Shown: positions 2,983 to 15,926 of the stretch, piece after piece
Layout of the letters: every line of letters begins with the position of its first letter
Position numbering within the stretch: position 1 is the first letter of the stretch
The notes under the pieces: model-generated
Database searches by the model: none
What the model was told of the DNA's origin: nothing
The model's input: the letters and a program-made list of their open reading frames with translations, nothing else
IMG/VR virus record: IMGVR_UViG_3300033121_002167
Coordinates: 64,001 to 81,612 of that record
Strand: one strand, 5' to 3'
DNA length: 17,612 nt
Source: a virus
Position numbers and translations under genes: made by a program

Positions 2983-3738
2983 CTACAAAATTACAAATCC
3001 ACCAACAATTGCAGACTCAGTAAAACTAGAACCGTGCGTATAAATACGTCTATTTCTATCGATACAACAACTACCACCTTTGTACTTCAGATCGCGCTCG
3101 GTACCAACTCTGTTTGACACAATGACATTTGCTCTTGTGTCTTCAACAAGCTCAACCCAGGCTGAATCTGGGTACCCATAGGCACCGCCCCAGTTCGTCA
3201 GAAGAGCAATCATGTCGACAGAGCCTTTGCTGTAAAATTTCTGCCCAGGCTTGTAAAAAGCGTACGATTCTCTGTAGTGATTCATTGCATCCCTGCAAAC
3301 TAGCGCTCCCAGCCGACCGACTGGCGTCACGACTAGTGCATGAAGGGCTTCTGAGGGCTGCGCCCAAATGTTGTCATTACCCCATAGGTTGCTTTTCTGC
3401 GAATTCCCTGCGAGGCCCGAGGGACCCACGATGGCCGCTGAGTTGTACAGCTTACCTTCATAGAGCTCCGGGTAGCCAAAGACAATGTAGCAGTTGTAAC
3501 GATTGGCAATTGGGATGAACGCTTCTGTCTGATACCCATCACGTTCCTGAGCACACTCCATTGCTTCACGAGGAGATCGCAACGCAAACCCAGAAGTGCA
3601 AAGCTCAGGCAGAACGATGACACGGGCACCTTTCGCCGCGGCTTCGAAAGCTAGTTCAGTAGCAACAGCCAGATTCTTCTGGACGTTGAGCAGCTCTGGG
3701 TTGAACTGCGCCGCGGCAACTATTGCTACGTCGTTCAT
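2983..3738 (-). CDS. Carbon-nitrogen hydrolase (nitrilase superfamily) protein, 251 aa.
   Basis: The catalytic triad context matches the family: VIVLPE (Glu), GKLYNSAAIV (Lys) and GALVCRDAMN (Cys nucleophile). It has the expected alpha-beta-beta-alpha length and the expected N-terminal strand VAIVAAAQFNP. Confidence 0.7.
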   Translation of the reverse strand: MNDVAIVAAAQFNPELLNVQKNLAVATELAFEAAAKGARVIVLPELCTSGFALRSPREAMECAQERDGYQTEAFIPIANRYNCYIVFGYPELYEGKLYNSAAIVGPSGLAGNSQKSNLWGNDNIWAQPSEALHALVVTPVGRLGALVCRDAMNHYRESYAFYKPGQKFYSKGSVDMIALLTNWGGAYGYPDSAWVELVEDTRANVIVSNRVGTERDLKYKGGSCCIDRNRRIYTHGSSFTESAIVGGFVIL

Positions 3739-5407: not shown

Positions 5408-5730
5408 AATTCGCCCTTGGGAGCTTCTGCTTGCGAGATGTTAGGATTGCCAAGCTTCGCGTCCGTCCACTTCCTACCGAAGTAAAGAGCAAGGATCGGA
5501 GAGAAGTAGCTGGCGCATGCAGCAACATCGAATGGACGGACATGAATGGGACCAAGCGTCTCAAACATGGAGAGCACGTAAGCCAACGTTGTAACCCAAA
5601 ACGATACGAAGACAAGAGTGACAGTGACGCTTCCGTAACCACGACTGTCACGAATCCAAATTCTTGATGGCGAGACTTCACTAGGATCATTAGATGGTGG
5701 CAAATTTTCATTTGCTGTATTGTCAGACAT
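5200..5730 (-). CDS. Small membrane protein with two predicted transmembrane helices (VTVTLVFVSFWVTTLAYVLSMF and FDVAACASYFSPILALYFG).
   Basis: I place the start at the ATG at 5730-5728 (MSDNTANENL...), which has GAGG 7-8 nt upstream. The track start at 5742 is a second in-frame ATG. The last ~70 codons run out of frame across the start of the 583-aa gene and look like overprinted, non-native sequence, so the true C-terminus is uncertain. Confidence 0.45.
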   Translation of the reverse strand: MSDNTANENLPPSNDPSEVSPSRIWIRDSRGYGSVTVTLVFVSFWVTTLAYVLSMFETLGPIHVRPFDVAACASYFSPILALYFGRKWTDAKLGNPNISQAEAPKGELWHKRSLSPGQHCASLYQSFLITRSSGKFALKRWMILLMSTQLLISQQYLLILAIRTTSQTTKLNFKLL

Positions 5731-6514
5731 GTTCAACCTCATTATTTTCAGATATTTCTTGTCGATGTTTTTTCCACCACAATTTCATTGTTTCGCTATG
5801 TGATTTCCGAAAATCAACATTTTCCCAACGTTCGCAAGCTGATTTTCGTCTCTGCTCAGCTAGTTCTGATTTTTCATATGATCGTTTAACGCCGGCACTA
5901 ATTCGCTTTCGAACATTTTCATCTTGACGTGATTTTTTAGACGCCTCCGTCAAATGAAGCAAGTGTTCAGATGAAACACGTCGACCACTCAATTTTCTAG
6001 AAATACGTTCGCGAACTTCAGGAGTTCGTGAAGCTTTGCTTGAAGCACTCAATTTTTGACGCGTTTGTTTTGAAACAACACGGTTACTTGCAACATCAGA
6101 AAGATGTTGACGAACACCTGGTTTGTTCATACCAATACGGGTACGTTCAGAAATAATTTTGCGAATTTCGCTACTCGGATTTGAAATTCCTTCGCCCCCA
6201 ATCGTTTTGTTACATCTGATGTCATCTAGCGACAAACGAAACGAAGGATTGAATGTATCAAGTTCTTTTATCAGATAAATTTCATAATCAAAAGCTTGAT
6301 TTTCGTCCAGTGTTTCAAAAACAATTTCTCTTCTCAATCCCAAATGATGAGAAACAAATTTGTGATGCTTGTTACGACGTTTGTTTTTAACACGAGAAGA
6401 ATTTCCTTTTCCAACATAAAACGCGCGAGGTTCAATTTCAGTTGTGTAATCGACATACACATACCACTTAGACTGAACCTCAGTTGGATCAGCGGCTTTC
6501 TTCTCTTCTTCCAT
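5723..6514 (-). CDS. GIY-YIG homing endonuclease with C-terminal NUMOD3-like repeats (Seg-like, free-standing), about 264 aa.
   Basis: KWYVYVDYTTEIEPRAFYVGKG gives GIY-x10-YIG. The conserved Arg/His (RVKNKRRNKHH), Glu (FDYEIYLIKEL) and Asn (TFNP) are present. At least five repeats of the NUMOD3 type occur (SEIRKIISERT, TRQKLSASS, PEVRERISRKLSG, ENVRKRISAGVKRS, SHSETMKLWWKKH). The gene is strongly AT-rich. The track ORF starts at a GTG at 6628, giving a spurious Cys/Trp-rich extension. The real start is most likely the ATG at 6514-6512, which has GAGG 9 nt upstream. Confidence 0.85.
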   Translation of the reverse strand: MEEEKKAADPTEVQSKWYVYVDYTTEIEPRAFYVGKGNSSRVKNKRRNKHHKFVSHHLGLRREIVFETLDENQAFDYEIYLIKELDTFNPSFRLSLDDIRCNKTIGGEGISNPSSEIRKIISERTRIGMNKPGVRQHLSDVASNRVVSKQTRQKLSASSKASRTPEVRERISRKLSGRRVSSEHLLHLTEASKKSRQDENVRKRISAGVKRSYEKSELAEQRRKSACERWENVDFRKSHSETMKLWWKKHRQEISENNEVEHV

Positions 6515-6549
6515 GTCGACAACCTCTGGTCCTAAATAGGCTGTACAGA
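5723..6549 (-). mobile_element. AT-rich homing-endonuclease island inserted between a membrane-protein gene and the coiled-coil/secreted protein gene.
   Basis: Composition drops to AT-rich exactly over the endonuclease ORF, with GC-normal flanks. Confidence 0.55.
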
Positions 6550-7044
6550 TCATTTGGTCGCATGCGATAGAGCAAAAACGGTGAGCACGGTGAAAACGGC
6601 GCCGCCAGCAAAACCACCAGCAGCCCACAGCATGGGATTGCTAGAGCTAGATGATTGCTTTCGAATCTCTTCGTTTAGCGCAGCAATCTCTTTTTCTTTT
6701 GCAACGATTGATGCACTTAGGATCTTCTTCTCAGCGTCAGTCGTCGCTTGAAGTTCTACGAGCTTGAACTGCGACTGTGCGGCAGCTTCAGCTTTCGCCT
6801 TGTCAACTTCGATCTTCACTTGATCTTTGGAAGAATTTAGCTGCACGATGATGCTTGCAACAGCTTTTGGCGATAGCAAAACACCGGTGTAAGGTGCTGG
6901 CTCACCCTTTTTCATAGGAGTCGTCACAGCACCAGGATCTGGTTCAGCAGATGGAACTGCTGGCACAGTCAACCCTTCGCATCGACCAGGGATTGCTGAA
7001 AAGAAGAACGTCAGAAACGTTACTAGCGTGATGAACTTTTTCAC
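6550..7044 (-). CDS. Secreted or membrane-anchored coiled-coil protein, 164 aa. It has an N-terminal signal-like hydrophobic segment (KKFITLVTFLTFFFSAIPGRC), a central coiled coil and a C-terminal transmembrane helix (MLWAAGGFAGGAVFTVLTVFAL). It may be a spanin-like lysis component.
   Basis: The start is a GTG at 7044-7042 with GGTGG 3 nt upstream, overlapping the TGA of the upstream gene as GTGA. There is no in-frame ATG until far downstream. The topology resembles unimolecular or outer-membrane spanins, but the lipobox is not canonical (PGRC). Confidence 0.5.
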   Translation of the reverse strand: MKKFITLVTFLTFFFSAIPGRCEGLTVPAVPSAEPDPGAVTTPMKKGEPAPYTGVLLSPKAVASIIVQLNSSKDQVKIEVDKAKAEAAAQSQFKLVELQATTDAEKKILSASIVAKEKEIAALNEEIRKQSSSSSNPMLWAAGGFAGGAVFTVLTVFALSHATK

Positions 7045-8039: not shown

Positions 8040-8598
8040 GAACTAAGACTGCTCCTCCTCCGCCGACGCCTCCATCACCTGCTCGATCAGCTGGCGGTGC
8101 AGTGAATTCATCTTCCATTTCATCCCTTGACTTACCGATCTCCATGCCATGCTCGTTGCGAAGCTGCTCTTTGAATGAATCAGCAACTGACTCATCGTAA
8201 TTCTTCGACAAGAAGTTTGACGCCCTACGCAAGATCGTATTTCTAACTTCTAGCAAGGAGTCGTAGTTGTCTATCAACCTGACAACGCCGTTGACAAAAG
8301 AGCCCACGTCGATGTCTTCAACAGTAAGCTTCTTTGGTTCATCGCTAGAATCATCACCCTTGTCGTCATCTTCACCAGCTTCAACGATTCGACGCACAGT
8401 CATTCGCCAATCGCGACCTTCGGTCTTTGCGGACTTTGCTTCTTTCTCATAGTCATTCAAGTAACGATCGACCTGAGAGTCTAGTGAATCTTCTCCCGGC
8501 TCTTCTGCTGGTGGCGCCGGCGCTTCGCCTTCTTCTCTGAGAATCTCTTCCCTTAGAACACGCCGAAGATCACCCAAGCGAACCTTAAAAGTCTTCAT
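8029..8598 (-). CDS. Hypothetical acidic protein, 189 aa (Glu/Asp-rich, Gly-run near the C-terminus).
   Basis: The ATG at 8598-8596 overlaps the TGA of the SOD-like gene in an ATGA arrangement. Confidence 0.55.
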   Translation of the reverse strand: MKTFKVRLGDLRRVLREEILREEGEAPAPPAEEPGEDSLDSQVDRYLNDYEKEAKSAKTEGRDWRMTVRRIVEAGEDDDKGDDSSDEPKKLTVEDIDVGSFVNGVVRLIDNYDSLLEVRNTILRRASNFLSKNYDESVADSFKEQLRNEHGMEIGKSRDEMEDEFTAPPADRAGDGGVGGGGAVLVHEI

Positions 8599-9311
8599 GA
8601 CTTCACCGCCACGCCGATTGCTTCAGCTCTCTTAAAACGATCTTCGCAAACTTCCCAATTGATCTCTCTCATCTGAGCGATCAAGTAGCTCTTCTTGTCG
8701 GTCAAGTAGTCTCTAGCGTATGCATGCTCCCACATGTCGACAACGATCACTGGGTAGAAGCCTAGTGGGATATCTCCACTGTGGTGGCTGATTGGAACGT
8801 TGATGTACTTCTTCAAGAAAGTGTGATATCCGCAAACAGCCCATCCATTTCCAGCAGCCATGGCACATGCGATGAAGTCACGTTGCCAATCTTCGAACGT
8901 TCCGAAGTCTCTCTGCAGCTTGATGTAAGCGATTGAATCCATCACGATCTCAGAATGAGGATCGTAGCAGTTCGCAAAGTACAGCTCGTGAAGCCACACA
9001 GCATTGAGGTTGTACGCTTCATCAAGCTTCAATGACCTGAAGTCACTGTGCTTTGAATTTGAAGCGCCCCTGTCAGCAGTGTCAAGCTGCGCTGAAACAT
9101 TGTTCAACGTATCAACGTACTCACGGTAAAGAGTTGTGTGCGCTTCTTTTGTCTTCTGCGAAACCATCTCGGAGACTTGCTTGAACGGCTTCGGTTCTGC
9201 AACGTAAGACTCGTTGATCTTTCCAACTTCTTTCACAGCAGCCGAGCGCGATAGCGCATCTCTGATCGTCTTATCAAGGTCTAGACCTTCTAGTATGTTC
9301 TTTTTGCTCAT
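8595..9311 (-). CDS. Fe/Mn superoxide dismutase-like protein, 238 aa, with a ~40-aa N-terminal extension.
   Basis: The C-terminal signature DMWEHAYARDY corresponds to the D-x-W-E-H-A-Y-Y motif that carries the Asp and His metal ligands. Other matches are GNGWAVCGY (GSGWxWL-like), NAVWLHELYF (NAAQxWNHtFyW-like, with His) and HTTLYREYVDTLNN (HHxxYVxxLN-like). The ATG has AAGGA 9 nt upstream. Confidence 0.65.
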   Translation of the reverse strand: MSKKNILEGLDLDKTIRDALSRSAAVKEVGKINESYVAEPKPFKQVSEMVSQKTKEAHTTLYREYVDTLNNVSAQLDTADRGASNSKHSDFRSLKLDEAYNLNAVWLHELYFANCYDPHSEIVMDSIAYIKLQRDFGTFEDWQRDFIACAMAAGNGWAVCGYHTFLKKYINVPISHHSGDIPLGFYPVIVVDMWEHAYARDYLTDKKSYLIAQMREINWEVCEDRFKRAEAIGVAVKS

Positions 9312-9609
9312 GATCTTTTCCTTGTAAGCTTAGCTCGTAATTCTTTTCAAGTTCTTCTGCATCAATCAGGAATTTTTCACCCTCTGGCGTCCTGAGTATG
9401 CAATCGTTAGGACCGACTGAATCCACTGTGTAGCGAATTCCACTGTTCTTGTGAAGAACTTTCAGCTCTGGAGCGATGATCATCTTCTCTTCTCCTTTGC
9501 CGATCTTTGCAGTCATCGCAACGTCGACGGTCTCCGTTAGAGACGCAACACGTGAGTCCCACTCTTCACGGAAGACTTCTATGATGTCCTTATCAGTAAG
9601 TGCTCTCAT
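9274..9609 (-). CDS. Hypothetical protein, 111 aa.
   Basis: The ATG at 9609-9607 overlaps the TGA of the dCMP deaminase gene (ATGA). It overlaps the next gene by 38 nt. Confidence 0.5.
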   Translation of the reverse strand: MRALTDKDIIEVFREEWDSRVASLTETVDVAMTAKIGKGEEKMIIAPELKVLHKNSGIRYTVDSVGPNDCILRTPEGEKFLIDAEELEKNYELSLQGKDHEQKEHTRRSRP

Positions 9610-10043
9610 GTTCTCGATGTAAGTATTGTGTCCGATGTTCTCATGACTTCAATACCAACTGATTGCAGCAAGACAAGACCTGACGAATCCCTGTACTGGA
9701 TGTCATACACGACCCTAGAGATTCCAGCGTTGATGATCATCTTGGCACACATCCGACACGGTGAATGAGTCACGTACATGTGCTTCTTCTTCGGAAAGTT
9801 ATAATCGAGCTTGATTATAGCGTTAGCCTCAGCATGCAAGAAACCGCTAAGACCAGGTTCGCTCGATTCTTTCTCGTGAGGTCCACCCTTGTAGTTCCCG
9901 TTGTACCCAATCGAGAGCATCTGCGTGTTATCGTCAGAAACGACGATCGCTCCCACTTTGAGAGCATCGTCGTACGATCTAAGAGAGATCGTCTTTGCTA
10001 CTGACATCCACGTTTCAGGCCACGGAACAGCGTTGTTGGTCAT
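9606..10043 (-). CDS. cd: Deoxycytidylate (dCMP) deaminase, zinc-dependent cytidine/dCMP deaminase family.
   Basis: HAEANAI (the zinc His plus catalytic Glu) and SPCRMCAKMIINAGI (the PCxxC zinc ligands). The track start at 10076 is TTG. I chose the ATG at 10043-10041, which overlaps the thymidine kinase TGA as ATGA (MTNNAVPWPETW...). Confidence 0.85.
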   Translation of the reverse strand: MTNNAVPWPETWMSVAKTISLRSYDDALKVGAIVVSDDNTQMLSIGYNGNYKGGPHEKESSEPGLSGFLHAEANAIIKLDYNFPKKKHMYVTHSPCRMCAKMIINAGISRVVYDIQYRDSSGLVLLQSVGIEVMRTSDTILTSRT

Positions 10044-10609
10044 GTTAGCACTATGAAAGGATGACATCGCAAGCAACGCGGCTCGTATAGCTCGTGCCCG
10101 CCAACTTCAAGCAACGTTTCATCTTCGCTCTTCTTGTACGTAAAATGAGCATCTTGCGAGCAGATCGTGCACACTGCTGAGCACTTCTCTATTGACGTTG
10201 CCCAAGGCAACATCTTTGTCACTTCATCGAACGGTTTGCCGTTGAATGCAGTGTCAAGCGTTGACACTATGATGTTGTATCCGTTCCTGTACAAGAACGT
10301 CAAAGCATCAGCAACGCCGTTGATCATGAAAGCTTCATCTACTGCGATGATGCTAATGTCGTTGTTCTGCTCTTCAAGAACTTTCGCAAGGATACCTTCT
10401 GCGTTATTGACAGTGACTGCATCGTGACGCCAACCGCCGTGCGTCACGATCTGAGACGTAGAGTAGCGATCATCTATCGCAGGCTTGAAAACTAGAGCGT
10501 TTCTCTTCTGGTACTTGCAACGCTCAAGCTCCATCAACAATCGAGATGATTTTGATGACCACATGGGTCCGACGTACATCACGAATGTTGGATTAGCTTG
10601 CTTGCTCAT
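10040..10609 (-). CDS. tk: Thymidine kinase (type II, Tdk-like), 189 aa.
   Basis: P-loop YVGPMWSSKSS, Walker B/acceptor region AVDEAFMI, and the C-terminal zinc motif CSAVCTICS...CLRCH. ATG start. Confidence 0.9.
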   Translation of the reverse strand: MSKQANPTFVMYVGPMWSSKSSRLLMELERCKYQKRNALVFKPAIDDRYSTSQIVTHGGWRHDAVTVNNAEGILAKVLEEQNNDISIIAVDEAFMINGVADALTFLYRNGYNIIVSTLDTAFNGKPFDEVTKMLPWATSIEKCSAVCTICSQDAHFTYKKSEDETLLEVGGHELYEPRCLRCHPFIVLT

Positions 10610-10628: not shown

Positions 10629-11186
10629 CTAGAGCGCTAGTAATCCGACAACGACAAGCGTGTCGAACGGAGGAGCGCACCCGGCATTCTCTTCTGCGGC
10701 AGCCTTGAGAGAATCCAGAACTCTCTTCTTCGCCGGCCCCACGCCCTTCGAAGCCTTCAATGCACCCAACGCTGCAGGGGATCCAGAGCCAACAGAAGCG
10801 TAACCACGAGCACTCTCAACGAGCTGGAAGTTTCCCTCGAGCTCGTGCAGCTCACCCCTGTATGCAATGAGTAGCGCACCGTGGAAGTAGTGCTGACCAC
10901 GATGCTCCTCAGTACAATCAAACTTCTTCAAACCTTCGCGGATCGCAGGTACCCACTTGCTGACAAGATAGTCCTTCGCAGAACCGCTCTCGTGCGGCGG
11001 GAATTCGATGCCATGCTTGATAGCATCCATGACCTTAGGCAACCCGCAAACACCAACGCCGATGCCGTTCTTCAAGAAGATCTTCGGATGCTTCAAGAGA
11101 ACCCTGTCTAGACCGCCACCAGTTGCTGCACGATCACCACCGAGCCAAACGTTCTTTCCCTCAACGACGCCAACAATAACAGTCAT
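10629..11186 (-). CDS. HslV/proteasome beta-subunit-like N-terminal nucleophile peptidase, 185 aa.
   Basis: It starts MTVIVGVVEGKNVWLGGDRAATGG, compared with HslV [24 protein letters not shown], so Thr is at position 2 and would be the Thr1 nucleophile after Met removal. A Lys in HPKIF sits at the HslV Lys33-like position. The Gly-rich GVGVCG and YASVGSGSPAALGALKA match the HslV GSGG region. There is a strong ribosome-binding site, AAGGAG. Confidence 0.65.
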   Translation of the reverse strand: MTVIVGVVEGKNVWLGGDRAATGGGLDRVLLKHPKIFLKNGIGVGVCGLPKVMDAIKHGIEFPPHESGSAKDYLVSKWVPAIREGLKKFDCTEEHRGQHYFHGALLIAYRGELHELEGNFQLVESARGYASVGSGSPAALGALKASKGVGPAKKRVLDSLKAAAEENAGCAPPFDTLVVVGLLAL

Positions 11187-11362
11187 TTTCCATTCTCCTT
11201 TTCTTCTTTGTAGTTCACTTCAGTCTGCCAGGCTACTTTTATGAGCTCAACCACTTGATCAATGCTCAACCCGAGCATCTCACCGAGCTCAACGACGCTT
11301 CTTACTGCTACCTCGAACATCTTCTCAATCGATGGTAGCTGATCTCCTTTTTGCTTTGCCAT
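11183..11362 (-). CDS. Small hypothetical protein, about 59 aa (MAKQKGDQLPSIEKMFEVAVRSVVELGEMLGLSIDQVVELIKVAWQ...).
   Basis: The ATG at 11362-11360 lies immediately after the TAG of the hydroxymethylase gene. A longer version from the ATG at 11413 would overlap by 50 nt. Weak support. Confidence 0.35.
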   Translation of the reverse strand: MAKQKGDQLPSIEKMFEVAVRSVVELGEMLGLSIDQVVELIKVAWQTEVNYKEEKENGK

Positions 11363-11363
11363 G

Positions 11364-12023
11364 CTATTCAACCAAGTGCCAATGCTTTTGGTATACGTGC
11401 AAAGAACCAGCATGCCAAATCATGGGACCAACTTTGACGCCCAGATCGTGAGCAAGCTGCTTGTGAACGTAGTCTTGCCAGACGCGGTCGTTGCGATATC
11501 CATACAAGACATCGTTCGACCTCATGCGAACGTCAGCAACCAGCTCTCCATTTCTGACGAAGTACTGGACTGAATCAGTACAGATGAAGTCGCTCATCCC
11601 GCTACGGTTGTAATCTTTCCAGATCGAAGGACGCGTGTACACCATCTCTGCGCGGCGGCTTTCTGGAGCTCGACGAAGTTCAGCTAGAACGTTGCTGTAC
11701 TGATCGTGATTCTCAGGGCTCCAGATAAGATAACCATAGTTCGAGTTGATCTCACCGTTAGGTGTAGCGCATGCAACCCAAGCAGCAGGTGCACCGCCAG
11801 GGATATCATGAACGTTAAGAGACATAGACTTGTACCACTCGATCTCCCTAGCTGCGTAGTCCCTGTTCACGGTCCCAAAGATAGCTTCTTCATCCGCAAT
11901 GAACGTTGCACCTATGACCTCAATCATCTTGCAACCTGTTTTGTCGGTCACGTGCTCGCCGGATGCTTTTAGCTCACGGAACCAACTCCGAACATCGCTG
12001 ACTCTATGCTCAATTCGTATCAT
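11364..12023 (-). CDS. Deoxycytidylate 5-hydroxymethylase (T4 gp42-like, thymidylate-synthase fold), 219 aa.
   Basis: Blocks match T4 gp42 as I remember it: DKTGCKMIEVIGATFIADEE, REIEWYKSMSL, GEINSNYGYLIWS, ESRRAEMVYTRPSI, GMSDFICTDSVQYF (Cys nucleophile) and MRSNDVLYGYRNDRVWQDYV. The Asp in the RND motif, where thymidylate synthase has Asn, is the cytosine-specificity determinant. The C-terminal HAGSLHVYQKH matches the TS/CH GDAHIY region. Confidence 0.85.
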   Translation of the reverse strand: MIRIEHRVSDVRSWFRELKASGEHVTDKTGCKMIEVIGATFIADEEAIFGTVNRDYAAREIEWYKSMSLNVHDIPGGAPAAWVACATPNGEINSNYGYLIWSPENHDQYSNVLAELRRAPESRRAEMVYTRPSIWKDYNRSGMSDFICTDSVQYFVRNGELVADVRMRSNDVLYGYRNDRVWQDYVHKQLAHDLGVKVGPMIWHAGSLHVYQKHWHLVE

Positions 12024-12174
12024 TCGTCTTCATCTCCAGGTCCAGCACCTTGTCTTCTAGCGTTTGAATTCTCACCTTCATCTCATTGTGTGCCCTAATG
12101 TCAACGATCGACAGAACGATCGTGAACAGCAACAGCACCCATAGCATGAAGTGGACGTGATGATCTGATTTCAT
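12010..12174 (-). CDS. Unlisted small membrane protein, 54 aa (MKSDHHVHFMLWVLLLFTIVLSIVDIRAHNEMKVRIQTLEDKVLDLEMKTNDTN).
   Basis: It is not in the ORF track because it is under 60 aa. The ATG at 12174-12172 overlaps the epimerase TGA as TGATG. It has one clear transmembrane helix followed by a charged helix. It ends 14 nt inside the hydroxymethylase start and fills an otherwise 150-nt gap in a gapless operon. Confidence 0.45.
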   Translation of the reverse strand: MKSDHHVHFMLWVLLLFTIVLSIVDIRAHNEMKVRIQTLEDKVLDLEMKTNDTN

Positions 12175-13142
12175 CAGACGTTAAGCTTTAGGTTCTTTGC
12201 CCAGTCCCAATTGTTGTCGTACCAATCGCATGTGCGAGCGATACCTTCCCAAACAGGAACTTTTACGCTGTACGCAAGGTAAACTGATGCACCGCTGATG
12301 TTTGCTAGCGTTCGCTTCACATCACCTGCCCGTGTGGGCGCAACGTTGAGCTTGAACCCGCCGTAACGCTTCAGAAGGTAAAGAATGATGTCGTTGTTGG
12401 ATACTTCAGTTCCACATGCTACGTTGAATCGATGCGCTTCAGCAGATGGAAGCTGCGCTGTTGCGGCCTTCATGCATGCATCAACAACGTTGTCAACGTA
12501 ACACAAGTCTCTTGATTGAGAGCCGTCACCATCGAAGCGAAGCGGTTCACCCTTCTTGATAGCCGTCAACCACGCGGCGAGCGCAGTTGCGTACGGAGAA
12601 CCACCCAGCGCGTTGGGTCCAAAGACGTTGAAGAACCTCAAGGAGACAGAATCTAGACCGTAGAACGTCTTGTACAACGTCAAGTAATCTTCGATGATAG
12701 ATTTCTGAAGCGCGTACGGCGACTTGGGATTCTTCTCTTCGCTCTCATGCGTGGGTAGCTTAAGAGCGCCGCCGTACACTGAAGAAGATGAAGCAAAGAC
12801 GAACCGTGTGATGTTTCCTCTGCATGCTTCCAGCAACTTCAGCGTCTTCGTGACGTTTGCATCGTTCGTTTCAAACGGATGCTCCACAGAGTACGAAACT
12901 CTTGGAACAGCAGCAAGATGGATGACAACGTCAAACTCTTTGTCCCTGATCTTCTGAAGAACTGCTTCATCAGAAAAATCACACTTAAATTCACGAATTT
13001 CTCGAAGAGTTGAATCGCTCAAAAATTCTGCGTGCCCATTAGAAAAATCATCAGCACCAGTAACTGTCCAACCAGCAGCTACGCATGCTGCTGTCAAATT
13101 TGAACCAATGAACCCTGCGTAGCCAGTTATGAGGACTTTCAT
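12174..13142 (-). CDS. NAD-dependent nucleotide-sugar epimerase/dehydratase (extended SDR, UDP-glucose 4-epimerase-like), 322 aa.
   Basis: Rossmann motif VLITGYAGFIGSNL, the catalytic YALQK (YxxxK), and the Ser-rich ASSSSVYGG upstream of it. The length and domain order are typical of GalE/WbpP-like enzymes. Confidence 0.85.
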   Translation of the reverse strand: MKVLITGYAGFIGSNLTAACVAAGWTVTGADDFSNGHAEFLSDSTLREIREFKCDFSDEAVLQKIRDKEFDVVIHLAAVPRVSYSVEHPFETNDANVTKTLKLLEACRGNITRFVFASSSSVYGGALKLPTHESEEKNPKSPYALQKSIIEDYLTLYKTFYGLDSVSLRFFNVFGPNALGGSPYATALAAWLTAIKKGEPLRFDGDGSQSRDLCYVDNVVDACMKAATAQLPSAEAHRFNVACGTEVSNNDIILYLLKRYGGFKLNVAPTRAGDVKRTLANISGASVYLAYSVKVPVWEGIARTCDWYDNNWDWAKNLKLNV

Positions 13143-13226: not shown

Positions 13227-13469
13227 TTAAAGCGTCGTCACCTCGTAAGAGCACCGAGCTCTAACAGCATCACGGAGACGTTCACGAAGATCATTCATGT
13301 CGACGGTGTGAGTTCTCAGCTCGCTGAACTCATCGAGCAACTTGCTCAACACGTCTGGTGCATCAGAAAAGTCTGGCGAGCCCATGAAAGGGTGCCCTCC
13401 TGCATCTCGAGCCAGCTTAGAATATTCGAAATAATTGGTCAATGAGATACCGGTATATATTTCCCGCAA
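13227..13469 (-). pseudogene. Remnant of the native 3' end of the glycosyltransferase gene, displaced by the homing-endonuclease cassette.
   Basis: This ORF has a TTG start and a stop codon immediately upstream. Its translation REIYTGISLTNYFEYSKLARDAGGHPFMGSPDFSD...RCSYEVTTL aligns over its full length with the C-terminus of the 446-aa glycosyltransferase (RECTELGCVPLTLNCNEYARLLKLSSFPIYCNPDFSD...RCSYEETTL). The remnant is GC-rich like the host genome, whereas the glycosyltransferase's current 3' end is AT-rich like the endonuclease. Confidence 0.6.
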
Positions 13470-14205
13470 TTATTCCCTTAACTTGGCTAATACGAAGATC
13501 GTATTTCTTGGCAAGATCTTTTTGAGTATACAATCCAGTTTGATAATCACTTCTAAGATCATTTACTGTCGCTCGTAGATGATCATTTCTTTTGATTCTA
13601 GCTGCGGCTATTTTTTGTTTAACTTCAACTCTTTGTTGAACTTCTTTTTGCTTTATGGAAGCTTTCAATCTAAATTCATCACTTCTGAAGATTTCTCGCA
13701 AGTTCTCGATTCGTTGTTTTGCTTTTTCTTCATCACTAGCCCAATTTTTCTTAAGTGATGAAGAAATACGCTGTTTGGTTTCTTCTGTTTGATGACCACG
13801 CAATTTTCTTACTTTGCTTTTCATCTTAAGTCTAAAACTAGGATCCTTCCACAATGCTTTAAATCGATCACTTATCAATTTTTTCTGGTGTGCTGTAATA
13901 CCACGCACGCCCTCGCCACCAGAAGTAAGATTTAGCAACATTACGCCACTTTTCTTAAGAGACGAGATGGTTTCAATTTCGTGTGCGTATGAATCTTCTT
14001 CATTACTAGTGTGATAAACACACTTAAATTCAAACGCGTCTAGACCATAAGTTCGCATGTTCGCATACAAATGACTTCTACCCCTAAATTGACCCGTAGA
14101 ACCAAAATAACGATGTATTCGCCAGCGACAAGCTAGATCATTAGTTTTTCCGACATAAACTTCTGACGTAATCGTATTTGTAATAGTGTATACAAAGAAT
14201 CCCAT
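13417..14205 (-). CDS. GIY-YIG homing endonuclease with NUMOD3 motifs (Seg/I-TevI-like, free-standing), 262 aa.
   Basis: GFFVYTITNTITSEVYVGKT gives GIY-x9-YVG. Also present are RWRIH, YAHEIETISS (Glu) and LLNLTSGG (Asn). NUMOD3-type repeats include HQTEETKQRISSSLKKNW, the consensus GxxHSEETKxKIS. It is strongly AT-rich, has an ATG start and no ribosome-binding site. Confidence 0.9.
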   Translation of the reverse strand: MGFFVYTITNTITSEVYVGKTNDLACRWRIHRYFGSTGQFRGRSHLYANMRTYGLDAFEFKCVYHTSNEEDSYAHEIETISSLKKSGVMLLNLTSGGEGVRGITAHQKKLISDRFKALWKDPSFRLKMKSKVRKLRGHQTEETKQRISSSLKKNWASDEEKAKQRIENLREIFRSDEFRLKASIKQKEVQQRVEVKQKIAAARIKRNDHLRATVNDLRSDYQTGLYTQKDLAKKYDLRISQVKGIIAGNIYRYLIDQLFRIF

Positions 14206-14460
14206 GATCTAACTATAGTGGCACACATACTTTTACAATAGATCCATACGTTTCATCGAACTCAACGTTGTTTCTTCGTATGAACATCTTTGTTGAACGA
14301 CTGTTTTCAGTCTTTCATGTGACTTTTTACAATCATCAGTGCCAACATAATCGATCAGATCGCTAGCTTTATCAACAATGTCAGAAAAATCAGGATTGCA
14401 ATAAATTGGAAATGATGACAATTTAAGCAATCTTGCATATTCATTACAGTTCAATGTCAA
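13417..14460 (-). mobile_element. Homing-endonuclease cassette: the endonuclease gene plus a co-transferred AT-rich replacement 3' end of the glycosyltransferase gene.
   Basis: A contiguous AT-rich block of about 1 kb covers the glycosyltransferase's last ~75 codons and the endonuclease gene. The displaced GC-rich native 3' end lies just downstream at 13227..13469. Confidence 0.6.
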
Positions 14461-15564
14461 TGGAACACATCCCAATTCTGTGCATTCTCTAGCAGCCGTT
14501 CCGCCGTACGTGTCCTGATCGTACAACCCAACAGATATCTCAGCTCTGGAAGCGATGTACTTGAATTCATCCCTGTTAAGCGGGCCAGAGACAAGAGACA
14601 TGTAGCCGTGACGGCCGCAGCGATCTTGCAAGCTAGAATTAGAGATTTTCTGGCTGGGATTTCCAGCTATGACAATAAAGTCTTGGCGACGATTGTGAAG
14701 CTTTGGCAAGATGTCAAACATGAACTTGCCGCAGTTCGTGTAGTCGCTAGACACCCCTGCTTCACCGATACGGTTCGGGACAAAGATGATCTTCTTGCCA
14801 GCTGATTGCAGCTTCTCGACCAGGTTGACATCAAACCTAAGATTGTCGAAATTGACCGGCGATGTGATCTCTTCTCGAGAGTACCCATCATCCCACGGTG
14901 AAGACTTTTCGAGGATCTTTTGGACAACTTCATCTCTGTAAAGCTTCCTGGCTTCAACTTCAAACTCTGCCAACGCAGATTCACACTGCCAGAAGTTCCA
15001 ATCGGCTTTCATCGCTGCTTCGCATTGACCGAGCCACAGCGATGCTTCAGCTGGAAACTTTGGACATGATGGCACATCCACGAAGTGGGAATGTACGAAA
15101 AACTTGGGTTGGTATCCACCAACAACATGGAACATCGCCTTGAAAGCTCTTAGATGCATTGGATCGTTGATGTAGACTGCATCCCACTTGGGTGCTCGGC
15201 TCAACTTCTGCATCCCGAGATTTAGACCGACAGCTAGACCCGTCCAGTCAAAATCATAACGAGTCACAAGAGCATTTCCGATGATGTTGTGCTCAAAGAA
15301 CGCTAGACGATTGTCGCCGTCTGCGCCGTAACGCTCCCAAAGATCTGGGTATACATCCCAAGGATCAGTTACAACTTGTCTCTTTCTGCCGTCATCACCA
15401 AGCTGTGGGATCATCACTGTGATGTGCAACTCTGGGTTCAGCTGAAGCATCACCCTTACGCGACCCATGACCATCTGAAAGCCCGAATCTGCTTCCAAGA
15501 TGAAGTTTCCCTTCGTGTCATAATTTGACAACTGTGTCTCTATCAAAAGCCGTTTTTGTCCCAT
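14233..15564 (-). CDS. GT-B fold glycosyltransferase (GT4-like C-terminal domain), about 443 aa. It is a candidate DNA hmC glycosyltransferase.
   Basis: The C-terminal region YDQDTYGGTAARECTELGCVPL matches the GT-B/GT4 E-x7-E nucleotide-sugar-binding region (…EAMACGCPVI). The track start at 15573 is TTG. The real ATG is at 15564-15562 (MGQKRLL...) with AAGGA 11 nt upstream. The last ~75 codons are AT-rich and have been allele-replaced. Confidence 0.6.
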   Translation of the reverse strand: MGQKRLLIETQLSNYDTKGNFILEADSGFQMVMGRVRVMLQLNPELHITVMIPQLGDDGRKRQVVTDPWDVYPDLWERYGADGDNRLAFFEHNIIGNALVTRYDFDWTGLAVGLNLGMQKLSRAPKWDAVYINDPMHLRAFKAMFHVVGGYQPKFFVHSHFVDVPSCPKFPAEASLWLGQCEAAMKADWNFWQCESALAEFEVEARKLYRDEVVQKILEKSSPWDDGYSREEITSPVNFDNLRFDVNLVEKLQSAGKKIIFVPNRIGEAGVSSDYTNCGKFMFDILPKLHNRRQDFIVIAGNPSQKISNSSLQDRCGRHGYMSLVSGPLNRDEFKYIASRAEISVGLYDQDTYGGTAARECTELGCVPLTLNCNEYARLLKLSSFPIYCNPDFSDIVDKASDLIDYVGTDDCKKSHERLKTVVQQRCSYEETTLSSMKRMDLL

Positions 15565-15569
15565 TATAA

Positions 15570-15926
15570 TCAATGTCCTTTTCTGCCCGGATTGCTCTGC
15601 TTTCTGTACTCTTGGTGTTCTGCGTCGCAGTGAGCCTTGGCTTGATCGAACATCCGACCAACCATTGACTTCAACAGATTCTCACCATAATCAGAAGCAA
15701 TCTCTTCTCTGATTTGATCAACAGTATGTTGAACGCATGCTTCACGATCGTACGAACCATCTAGTTCATCAAAAGTCCATGACGCTGGAGCCTTAATCCT
15801 TGTTGAAGCACGACCGGTCTTGAAGAATATGTGCCCATTTGTCCATCCTATCGACTCGGGAACGCACTCTTCGCGGCCATCGAGCATAGCATAATGCAGC
15901 TCGATCCAAATTTTGCTTCTGCTCAT
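15570..15926 (-). CDS. Hypothetical protein, 118 aa.
   Basis: ATG start overlapping the upstream TGA (ATGA). No recognisable motif. Confidence 0.55.
   Translation of the reverse strand: MSRSKIWIELHYAMLDGREECVPESIGWTNGHIFFKTGRASTRIKAPASWTFDELDGSYDREACVQHTVDQIREEIASDYGENLLKSMVGRMFDQAKAHCDAEHQEYRKQSNPGRKGH

Follow-up and report, generated by a model that had tools for sequence, protein, structure and literature searches.

The window analyzed here, 17,612 nucleotides (nt) of viral DNA (positions 64,001 to 81,612 of IMG/VR record IMGVR_UViG_3300033121_002167), carries a gene whose product very probably belongs to the proteasome family of N-terminal nucleophile (Ntn) hydrolases, keeps the Thr1 active site intact, and lacks a propeptide. 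The gene, which we call paralogue A, is not an HslV orthologue; it is a new member of a catalogued, uncharacterized phage group and belongs most likely among the phage-borne proteasome homologues that Fuchs, Alva and Lupas (2021) placed in "group I." Genes of this kind are already known from PHROG 1040, from IMG annotations, from the 2021 survey, and from the paper on phage pSal-SNUABM-04. What is new here is a modest lead, namely, the fixed position of the gene in an uncultured clade of large phages and its tandem arrangement there with a second paralogue (B), a combination that we did not find in the literature searched. The gene and its start signal are as follows.

10629..11186, minus strand: coding sequence of the proteasome-like Ntn hydrolase (paralogue A), 558 nt, 185 amino acids (aa) plus stop
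11195..11200, minus strand: Shine-Dalgarno sequence AAGGAG, 8 nt 5' of the paralogue A ATG

An initial annotation, made from the sequence alone, had the position of the gene right and needs correcting for strand. The open reading frame (ORF) runs on the minus strand, with its start ATG at 11186-11184 and its stop at 10631-10629; a plus-strand reading of 10629-11186 was rejected because that frame is full of stops. Translation of the minus-strand ORF gives the 185-aa product MTVIVGVVEGKNVWLGGDRAATGG...VGSGSPAALGALKAS... (in a fuller listing, MTVIVGVVEGKNVWLGGDRAATGGGLDRVLLKHPKIF...YASVGSGSPAALGALKASKG...), which contains the motifs that the annotation had quoted. The ribosome-binding site that it had proposed is also there, the minus-strand sequence 5' of the start being ...GAAAAGGAGAATGGAAA-ATG.

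The assignment to the proteasome family draws on structure, on profiles, and on individual residues. In an AlphaFold2 model of the product (pLDDT 92.6, pTM 0.89), strands and helices succeed one another as in proteasome beta subunits; the four helices span residues 50-59, 70-88, 136-145, and 152-166, and the model displays the alpha-beta-beta-alpha sandwich that characterizes proteasome beta subunits and the MEROPS T1 type superfamily. When the model was compared with the PDB by Foldseek, the top matches were structures of BPH, the beta-proteobacteria proteasome homologue (5ovt and 5ovs, E 2e-11, TM 0.78-0.79), followed by HslV (TM 0.65-0.74) and 20S beta subunits (TM 0.60-0.69). Similarly, a family profile searched against the PDB matched only HslV, BPH, and 20S beta chains. 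With distant relatives added, the broader profile matched BPH of Cupriavidus (Cm-BPH) over its full length at E 7e-10 and BPH of Thiobacillus at 5e-7, with HslV (E 1e-6 to 5e-5) and 20S beta chains (about 1e-5) coming next. In the profile alignment, T2, D18, K35, and G48 pair with Thr1, Asp17, Lys33, and Gly47 of the Rhodococcus 20S beta subunit (1q5q_H), and the GSG motif pairs with the Ser129-Gly130 loop; the catalytic residues also align to BPH. In precursor numbering, with mature numbering in parentheses, the key residues of the product are Thr2 (Thr1), Asp18 (Asp17), Lys35 (Lys33), and Gly48 (Gly47), and the Ser129 loop is Gly133-Ser134-Gly135. The full T1-type set (Thr1, Asp17, Lys33, Gly47, and the Ser129-Gly loop) is thereby present, Met1 being presumably removed. 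The proteasome-beta/HslV-type fold proposed at the outset was thus borne out, as was the residue pattern named for checking (Thr1 together with Lys33-like and Ser/Gly129-like positions), all of it in place by alignment to 20S beta and BPH. Neither a different fold nor a missing Thr1/Lys pair was seen.

Sequence conservation points in the same direction. Among 5.8 billion proteins, 130 homologues were recovered at E ≤ 1e-3, with 47-96% identity over their full length; the 120 listed range from 2.6e-114 (the best of all) to 7e-47 in E value, from 169 to 211 aa in length (mostly 180-190), and from 48 to 96% in identity. An alignment of 55 sequences of the family has 22 invariant columns (M1, T2, I4, D18, A20, K35, G45, G48, K51, P63, P80, G103, N119, F120, Q121, G133, G135, A139, G141, N167, A168, and P173). 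The proteasome catalytic positions fall among these columns, except for S134, which is conserved in at least 90% of the 55. Values of dN/dS (Nei-Gojobori) were 0.11, 0.12, and 0.16 in comparisons with orthologues at viral loci L001 (96% identical), L004 (67%), and L011 (99%), respectively. The gene is under purifying selection, and it is a real gene, conserved beyond chance. Because of the dN/dS range of 0.11-0.16 and this conservation, we rejected the possibility of a pseudogene or a chance ORF. A class II glutamine amidotransferase-type Ntn enzyme, which would have an N-terminal Cys, was also considered and rejected: Thr2 is invariant, Cys3 is a Val here, and no amidotransferase fold was matched.

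The family extends well beyond close homologues, into a large branch of propeptide-less proteins of about 180 aa that is mostly phage-borne. Its profile recovered 7,593 cluster representatives at 50% identity, 5,241 of them at E ≤ 1e-10; among the best 150 of the 7,593, nearly all are about 170-220 aa long and align from their first residue, and the sampled sequences of the wider family start with MT[CAV]. The distant representatives are all metagenomic and carry only the labels "hypothetical protein" or "HslVU peptidase subunit." Relatives with 23-34% identity to the window protein occur in 21 records of isolated phages, whose hosts include Vibrio, Tenacibaculum, Geobacillus, Moorella, Arthrobacter, Xanthomonas, and Escherichia coli, together with a Methanobacterium virus. 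The model matches 37 of the viral structure clusters in BFVD at E ≤ 1e-3, the best with a TM of 0.92. A scan of 185,579 GTDB species genomes for the A subfamily gave 83 pattern matches, none of which was confirmed.

The initial annotation had called the protein HslV-like, which stands at the level of the superfamily and fails for HslV proper, since BPH outranks HslV among the matches and the HslV equivalog model of NCBIfam (NF003964) gave 11.8 bits against a cutoff of 137 (E 0.14), with only residues 105-148 aligned. Pfam yielded nothing at E ≤ 0.01, and the gathering threshold of PF00227 (Proteasome, 22.4 bits) was not reached. PHROG 1040, described as "peptidase HslV family," matched residues 1-178 (E 1.5e-15, 58.5 bits). 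Like HslV (ClpQ), the protein has this fold, Thr1, Asp17, Lys33, and the GSG motif, and its compact subunit lacks the C-terminal helix H5; the IMG and PHROG pipelines name its family after HslV. An adjacent or co-encoded HslU, the mark of HslV, was found neither in the window nor in seven gene-called neighborhoods of relatives.

Among characterized proteins, BPH is nearest in both sequence and structure, and it likewise has neither a propeptide nor an unfoldase. Removal of its start Met exposes Thr1, to which epoxomicin binds covalently, and BPH forms tetradecamers (PMC5777263). No partner unfoldase was identified for it by genomics or pull-down, and it was inactive on model substrates (PMC5777263). 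There are also differences. BPH (PDB 5ovs, 5ovt, 5ovu) is cellular, chiefly beta-proteobacterial, and only 20-23% identical to the window protein; its ring is seven-fold, while the window protein is known here from its sequence and a monomer model. In addition, the pore loop of BPH is longer and has a run of Asp/Glu, whereas segment 89-102 of the window protein (FDCTEEHRGQHYFH), between helix H2 (70-88) and the strand at 103-109, is about 14 residues long, a few shorter than in Cm-BPH, and mixes acidic residues with His without such a run.

The phage homologues provide the closest setting. Fuchs, Alva and Lupas described 22 further proteasome homologues in 2021 (PMC8665760). Three of these, PPH, AAH, and CPH, lie in a "group I," where they radiate from BPH and HslV, and are found in phages, PPH being termed "the first true viral member"; the survey detected an AAA+ interactor co-occurring with none of the new homologues, these three included (PMC8665760). 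Like the window protein, PPH, AAH, and CPH are phage-encoded, compact, and without a propeptide, they lie around BPH and HslV, and they show no AAA+ co-occurrence. We rejected PPH itself as the identity of the product because PPH has about 140 aa and no helix H2 (PMC8665760), while the product has 185 aa and four helices including H2. The product may instead fall in AAH (reference WP_035979212), in CPH (reference WP_008185288), or in a new cluster. AAH and PPH occur in bacteria as well, in contrast to the A subfamily, which was unconfirmed in every GTDB genome scanned. HslV-like ORFs at two loci and without HslU were noted in 2020 in the jumbo phage pSal-SNUABM-04 (PMC7823757), which differs from the present case in being a cultured Salmonella phage and in that no tandem pairing is described for its two ORFs. 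With phage homologues lacking AAA+ partners already catalogued (PHROG 1040; PMC8665760; PMC7823757), and with the position between ThyA-like and thymidine kinase (TK) genes conserved in the clade, the description of the gene as unusual did not hold.

As to function, we lean, with some reserve, towards an account that joins removal of Met1 by a host aminopeptidase, a two-ring homo-oligomer, and unfoldase-independent action on peptides or unfolded proteins. Host methionine aminopeptidase would remove Met1, as measured for BPH, and thereby free the alpha-amine and hydroxyl of Thr1, which would act as the nucleophile with a Lys33/Asp17 relay and an oxyanion hole at Gly47. Subunits would stack as a two-ring homo-oligomer with the active sites inside, and during infection the complex, unaided by a dedicated unfoldase, might then cleave peptides or proteins in an unfolded or loosely folded state, as proposed for BPH and the other group I homologues. 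In the window lineage, the complex would be an A-only homomer following the loss of B.

The search for a partner fits this account. The initial annotation had reported no HslU or other AAA+ gene in the window, and we concur: no Walker A motif was found in window ORFs of at least 60 aa, and Pfam scans of 27 window ORFs returned no AAA family. Furthermore, seven fully gene-called neighborhoods of relatives, about 14-21 kb each, contained no unfoldase-type AAA+ protein, their sole P-loop match being a weak AAA_28 on a protein of 184-185 aa. Separately, a protein combining DnaJ (J-domain) and WGR lies about 4-5 kb upstream of the A/B pair in two loci (L006:5549-6679 and L007:3962-5050, minus in locus) and has no counterpart in the window; a link between it and Hsp70-assisted substrate delivery is speculative.

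Several considerations weigh against unfoldase-independent proteolysis in rings. Ring assembly is a proposal, and the active-site geometry is deduced from alignment to solved structures. Given that BPH is inactive on model substrates, the word "protease" is an extrapolation from active-site architecture. No phage member has a reported activity, oligomeric state, or substrate, and literature searches on proteasome-like genes of jumbo phages and on phage peptidase HslV returned nothing functional. Moreover, the genome measures at least 140 kb, of which our partner search covered 17.6 kb, so that a partner could lie elsewhere. HslU-like ATPases do occur in jumbo phages of Erwinia, Salmonella, and Klebsiella, as seen by tblastn with an E. 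coli HslU sequence (97% match to Salmonella HslU); examples are Erwinia phages RAY, Ea35-70, and Special G and Salmonella phage SPAsTU. Their existence makes a distant partner conceivable for this phage as well.

Two alternatives would restore an ATPase. The phage could encode its own AAA+ partner elsewhere, in which case paralogue A would supply the peptidase component of a phage ATP-dependent protease. What has been seen is a small part of the genome, the HslU-like ATPases of Erwinia and Salmonella jumbo phages offer a precedent (RAY gp116 has been reported at the phage nucleus), and some HslU-positive jumbo phages carry weak structural relatives of the protein in BFVD, such relatives (TM about 0.5) occurring in Special G, RisingSun, PhiPA3, and Noxifer. 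Still, we regard this as unlikely: neither the window nor the 14-21-kb neighborhoods of eight lineages contain an ATPase, a systematic search reported no AAA+ co-occurrence for these families (PMC8665760), and when the first words of record names are compared between relatives of the protein and HslU-positive phages, the two sets overlap only at "Escherichia." Alternatively, the protein could substitute for HslV, its dodecamers docking on the host HslU hexamer and redirecting host ATP-dependent proteolysis. An HslV-like size, the lack of a propeptide, the HslV annotation by IMG and PHROG, and the significant fold and profile matches to HslV chains are all compatible with this, and yet we doubt it, given the failure of the equivalog model. 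The segment between H2 and the following strand, at about 14 residues, is also nearly of BPH length, where HslV has a short linker. In addition, relatives occur in Arthrobacter and Gordonia phages and in a Methanobacterium virus, and Table 1 of PMC8665760 reports no HslV for either actinobacteria or archaea.

Other possibilities retain the fold and change the task. Connectase shows that this fold can yield a specific ligase (PMC8665760), and a specific Ntn amidase, transpeptidase, or ligase might mature one phage or host protein or serve the nucleotide or DNA-modification pathway. The strict ThyA-like/TK position of the gene, near an NAD-epimerase gene and a gene for a 446-aa protein in about 20 lineages, would suit such a role, as would the inactivity of BPH. 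Against it stand the absence from the model of the insertion between S3 and S4 that is the signature of connectase, the retention of the full proteasomal catalytic set, and the fact that phage synteny often reflects shared expression timing and not a shared pathway; we judge a specific enzyme of this kind improbable. Phage proteins also often mimic host subunits, and the activity of paralogue A is predicted from sequence, which would allow a catalytically dead structural or decoy protein that, for example, poisons host HslV or proteasome rings. However, Thr1, Asp17, and Lys33 would be needless in a decoy, and the catalytic positions are invariant across 47-96% identity with dN/dS of about 0.11, so this idea strikes us as very hard to credit.

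Paralogue B bears directly on how the A protein may assemble. In most lineages, this second proteasome-like gene (181-203 aa) begins 0-30 nt after A, between A and TK. It is present in L004/L005/L012, L006, L007/L022/L023, L009, L010, L013, L014, L018-L020, L024/L025, and L027-L032, with the following coordinates in five of these loci.

L004:10550-11095: paralogue B
L006:10583-11158: paralogue B
L007:10570-11151: paralogue B
L009:3851-4405: paralogue B
L010:10582-11193: paralogue B

Identity between B and the window protein is 24-31% (BLASTP 1e-25 for the copy in L004, which passes the Pfam Proteasome gathering threshold with 26.9 versus 22.4 bits). Like most A proteins, B starts with MTC, in L009 from a GTG codon. 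It keeps Asp17 and Lys33, while the Ser129 position is occupied by Cys, Ile, Ala, Thr, Val, or sometimes Ser, and Gly47 is missing in two members. The A gene stands alone in the window lineage (the window, L001-L003, and L011), in L008 (75% identical), and in L021; in the window, tblastn with the B protein of L004 finds the A gene alone. L017 has three proteasome-like copies, and the one copy in L038 is intermediate between the types. The simplest reading is that an A/B pair is ancestral and that B was lost in the window lineage. That lineage also has a Val in place of the near-invariant Cys next to Thr1 (codon 3) and ends in a hydrophobic tail, VVVGLLAL (10632-10655), instead of the V-x-V-K-basic C terminus.

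In most relatives, A and B probably form one complex, as their adjacency alone suggests. A more ambitious and tentative proposal, doubtful when its parts are taken together, is that in this clade, whose contigs reach about 370 kb, the Thr1 paralogues A (canonical GSG) and B (Cys, Ile, or Ala at Ser129) build a proteasome-like particle of two subunits that works without an ATPase, that the window lineage is a natural B-loss variant in which A suffices, and that the particle remodels the host proteome or removes a defense protein early in infection. If such a two-subunit particle existed, it would be the first case of viral subunit differentiation in a proteasome-like ring. More generally, viral proteasome homologues form a very large branch in which no member has a known substrate, assembly state, or infection role. 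The clade offers a comparative system, with the gene at a constant position in dozens of genomes and with natural variants having one, two, or three paralogues, in which action without an unfoldase, co-assembly of A and B, and substrates become testable. For this family, the annotation "ATP-dependent protease HslVU peptidase subunit" is misleading.

The genomic setting agrees with the earlier designation of the gene as phage-encoded. A copy that is 99% identical lies on IMG/VR contig IMGVR_UViG_3300033069_001798 (140 kb), to part of which the window DNA is 98-99% identical, and the contigs with orthologues are viral, measure 215-369 kb, and encode a DnaE-type polymerase as well. When the complete window was compared by megablast with 50,697 phage records, it had no match, and hence there is no cultured close relative among them. 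The immediate neighbors of paralogue A are as follows.

11364..12023, minus strand: ThyA-like protein of the thymidylate synthase family, short (219 aa), upstream neighbor (PF00303 E 4e-18; PHROG 160 E 3e-51)
11183..11413, minus strand: 76-aa ORF 5' of paralogue A, from the ORF list, with no assigned function; the same gene is called in L001-L003
10040..10609, minus strand: TK, downstream neighbor (PF00265 E 1e-41)
9606..10076, minus strand: dCMP deaminase, next in the same-strand block (PF00383 E 2e-20; PHROG 174 E 4e-43)

Because the flanking genes are all on the same strand, paralogue A sits inside a tightly packed transcription unit, with the TK start 19 nt 3' of its stop. The 76-aa ORF, which had zero Pfam or PHROG matches, overlaps the start of paralogue A with its stop (ATGA) and the ThyA-like gene with its 5' end; the ATGA overlap suggests translational coupling in one transcription unit. 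Across the clade, a synteny census (a local hidden Markov model scan of 36 fetched loci) identified the ThyA-like gene as the conserved 5' flank of the proteasome-like gene. The order NAD-epimerase, ThyA-like, A, B, TK, (CCA/polyA polymerase), dCMP deaminase, and Fe/Mn superoxide dismutase-like recurs in about 20 lineages, and its conservation makes the placement in a nucleotide block a stable trait of the clade, not an oddity of the window.

Upstream of paralogue A, the window also encodes an NAD-dependent sugar epimerase/dehydratase (12174-13142, minus strand) and a conserved 446-aa protein (14233-15573, minus strand) with no Pfam, PHROG, or PDB sequence match. Together with the ThyA-like protein, they form a conserved trio that could be a base-hydroxymethylation/glycosylation module. 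Downstream, the Fe/Mn superoxide dismutase-like protein (8595-9311, minus strand; C-terminal domain E 5e-18, N-terminal domain only E 1.5e-3) is encoded at the same position in nearly all clade loci. The dCMP deaminase gene is about 1 kb longer in close relatives (L011:7111-8430; L006:14431-15228; L009:6145-7443) than in the window, and in L006 and L009 it has a TnsA-like endonuclease N-domain, which suggests that an endonuclease was fused or inserted there and that its presence varies.

Two ORFs of the GIY-YIG homing-endonuclease type lie on the minus strand, one at 13417-14205 with a Pfam GIY-YIG match and the other at 5723-6628 with a YVGKG motif and no Pfam match. Both fall where L001 and L002, otherwise 95-98% identical, lack a segment (at about 13428-14466 and 5635-6460), and for this reason they look like recent mobile insertions. 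Finally, a pterin-4a-carbinolamine dehydratase homologue (1739-2113), a DUF7487 protein (2110-2973), and a carbon-nitrogen hydrolase of the nitrilase family (2983-3738) are encoded on the minus strand. Such auxiliary metabolic genes are unusual in a phage; two of the three, for the dehydratase and the hydrolase, are conserved in the clade.
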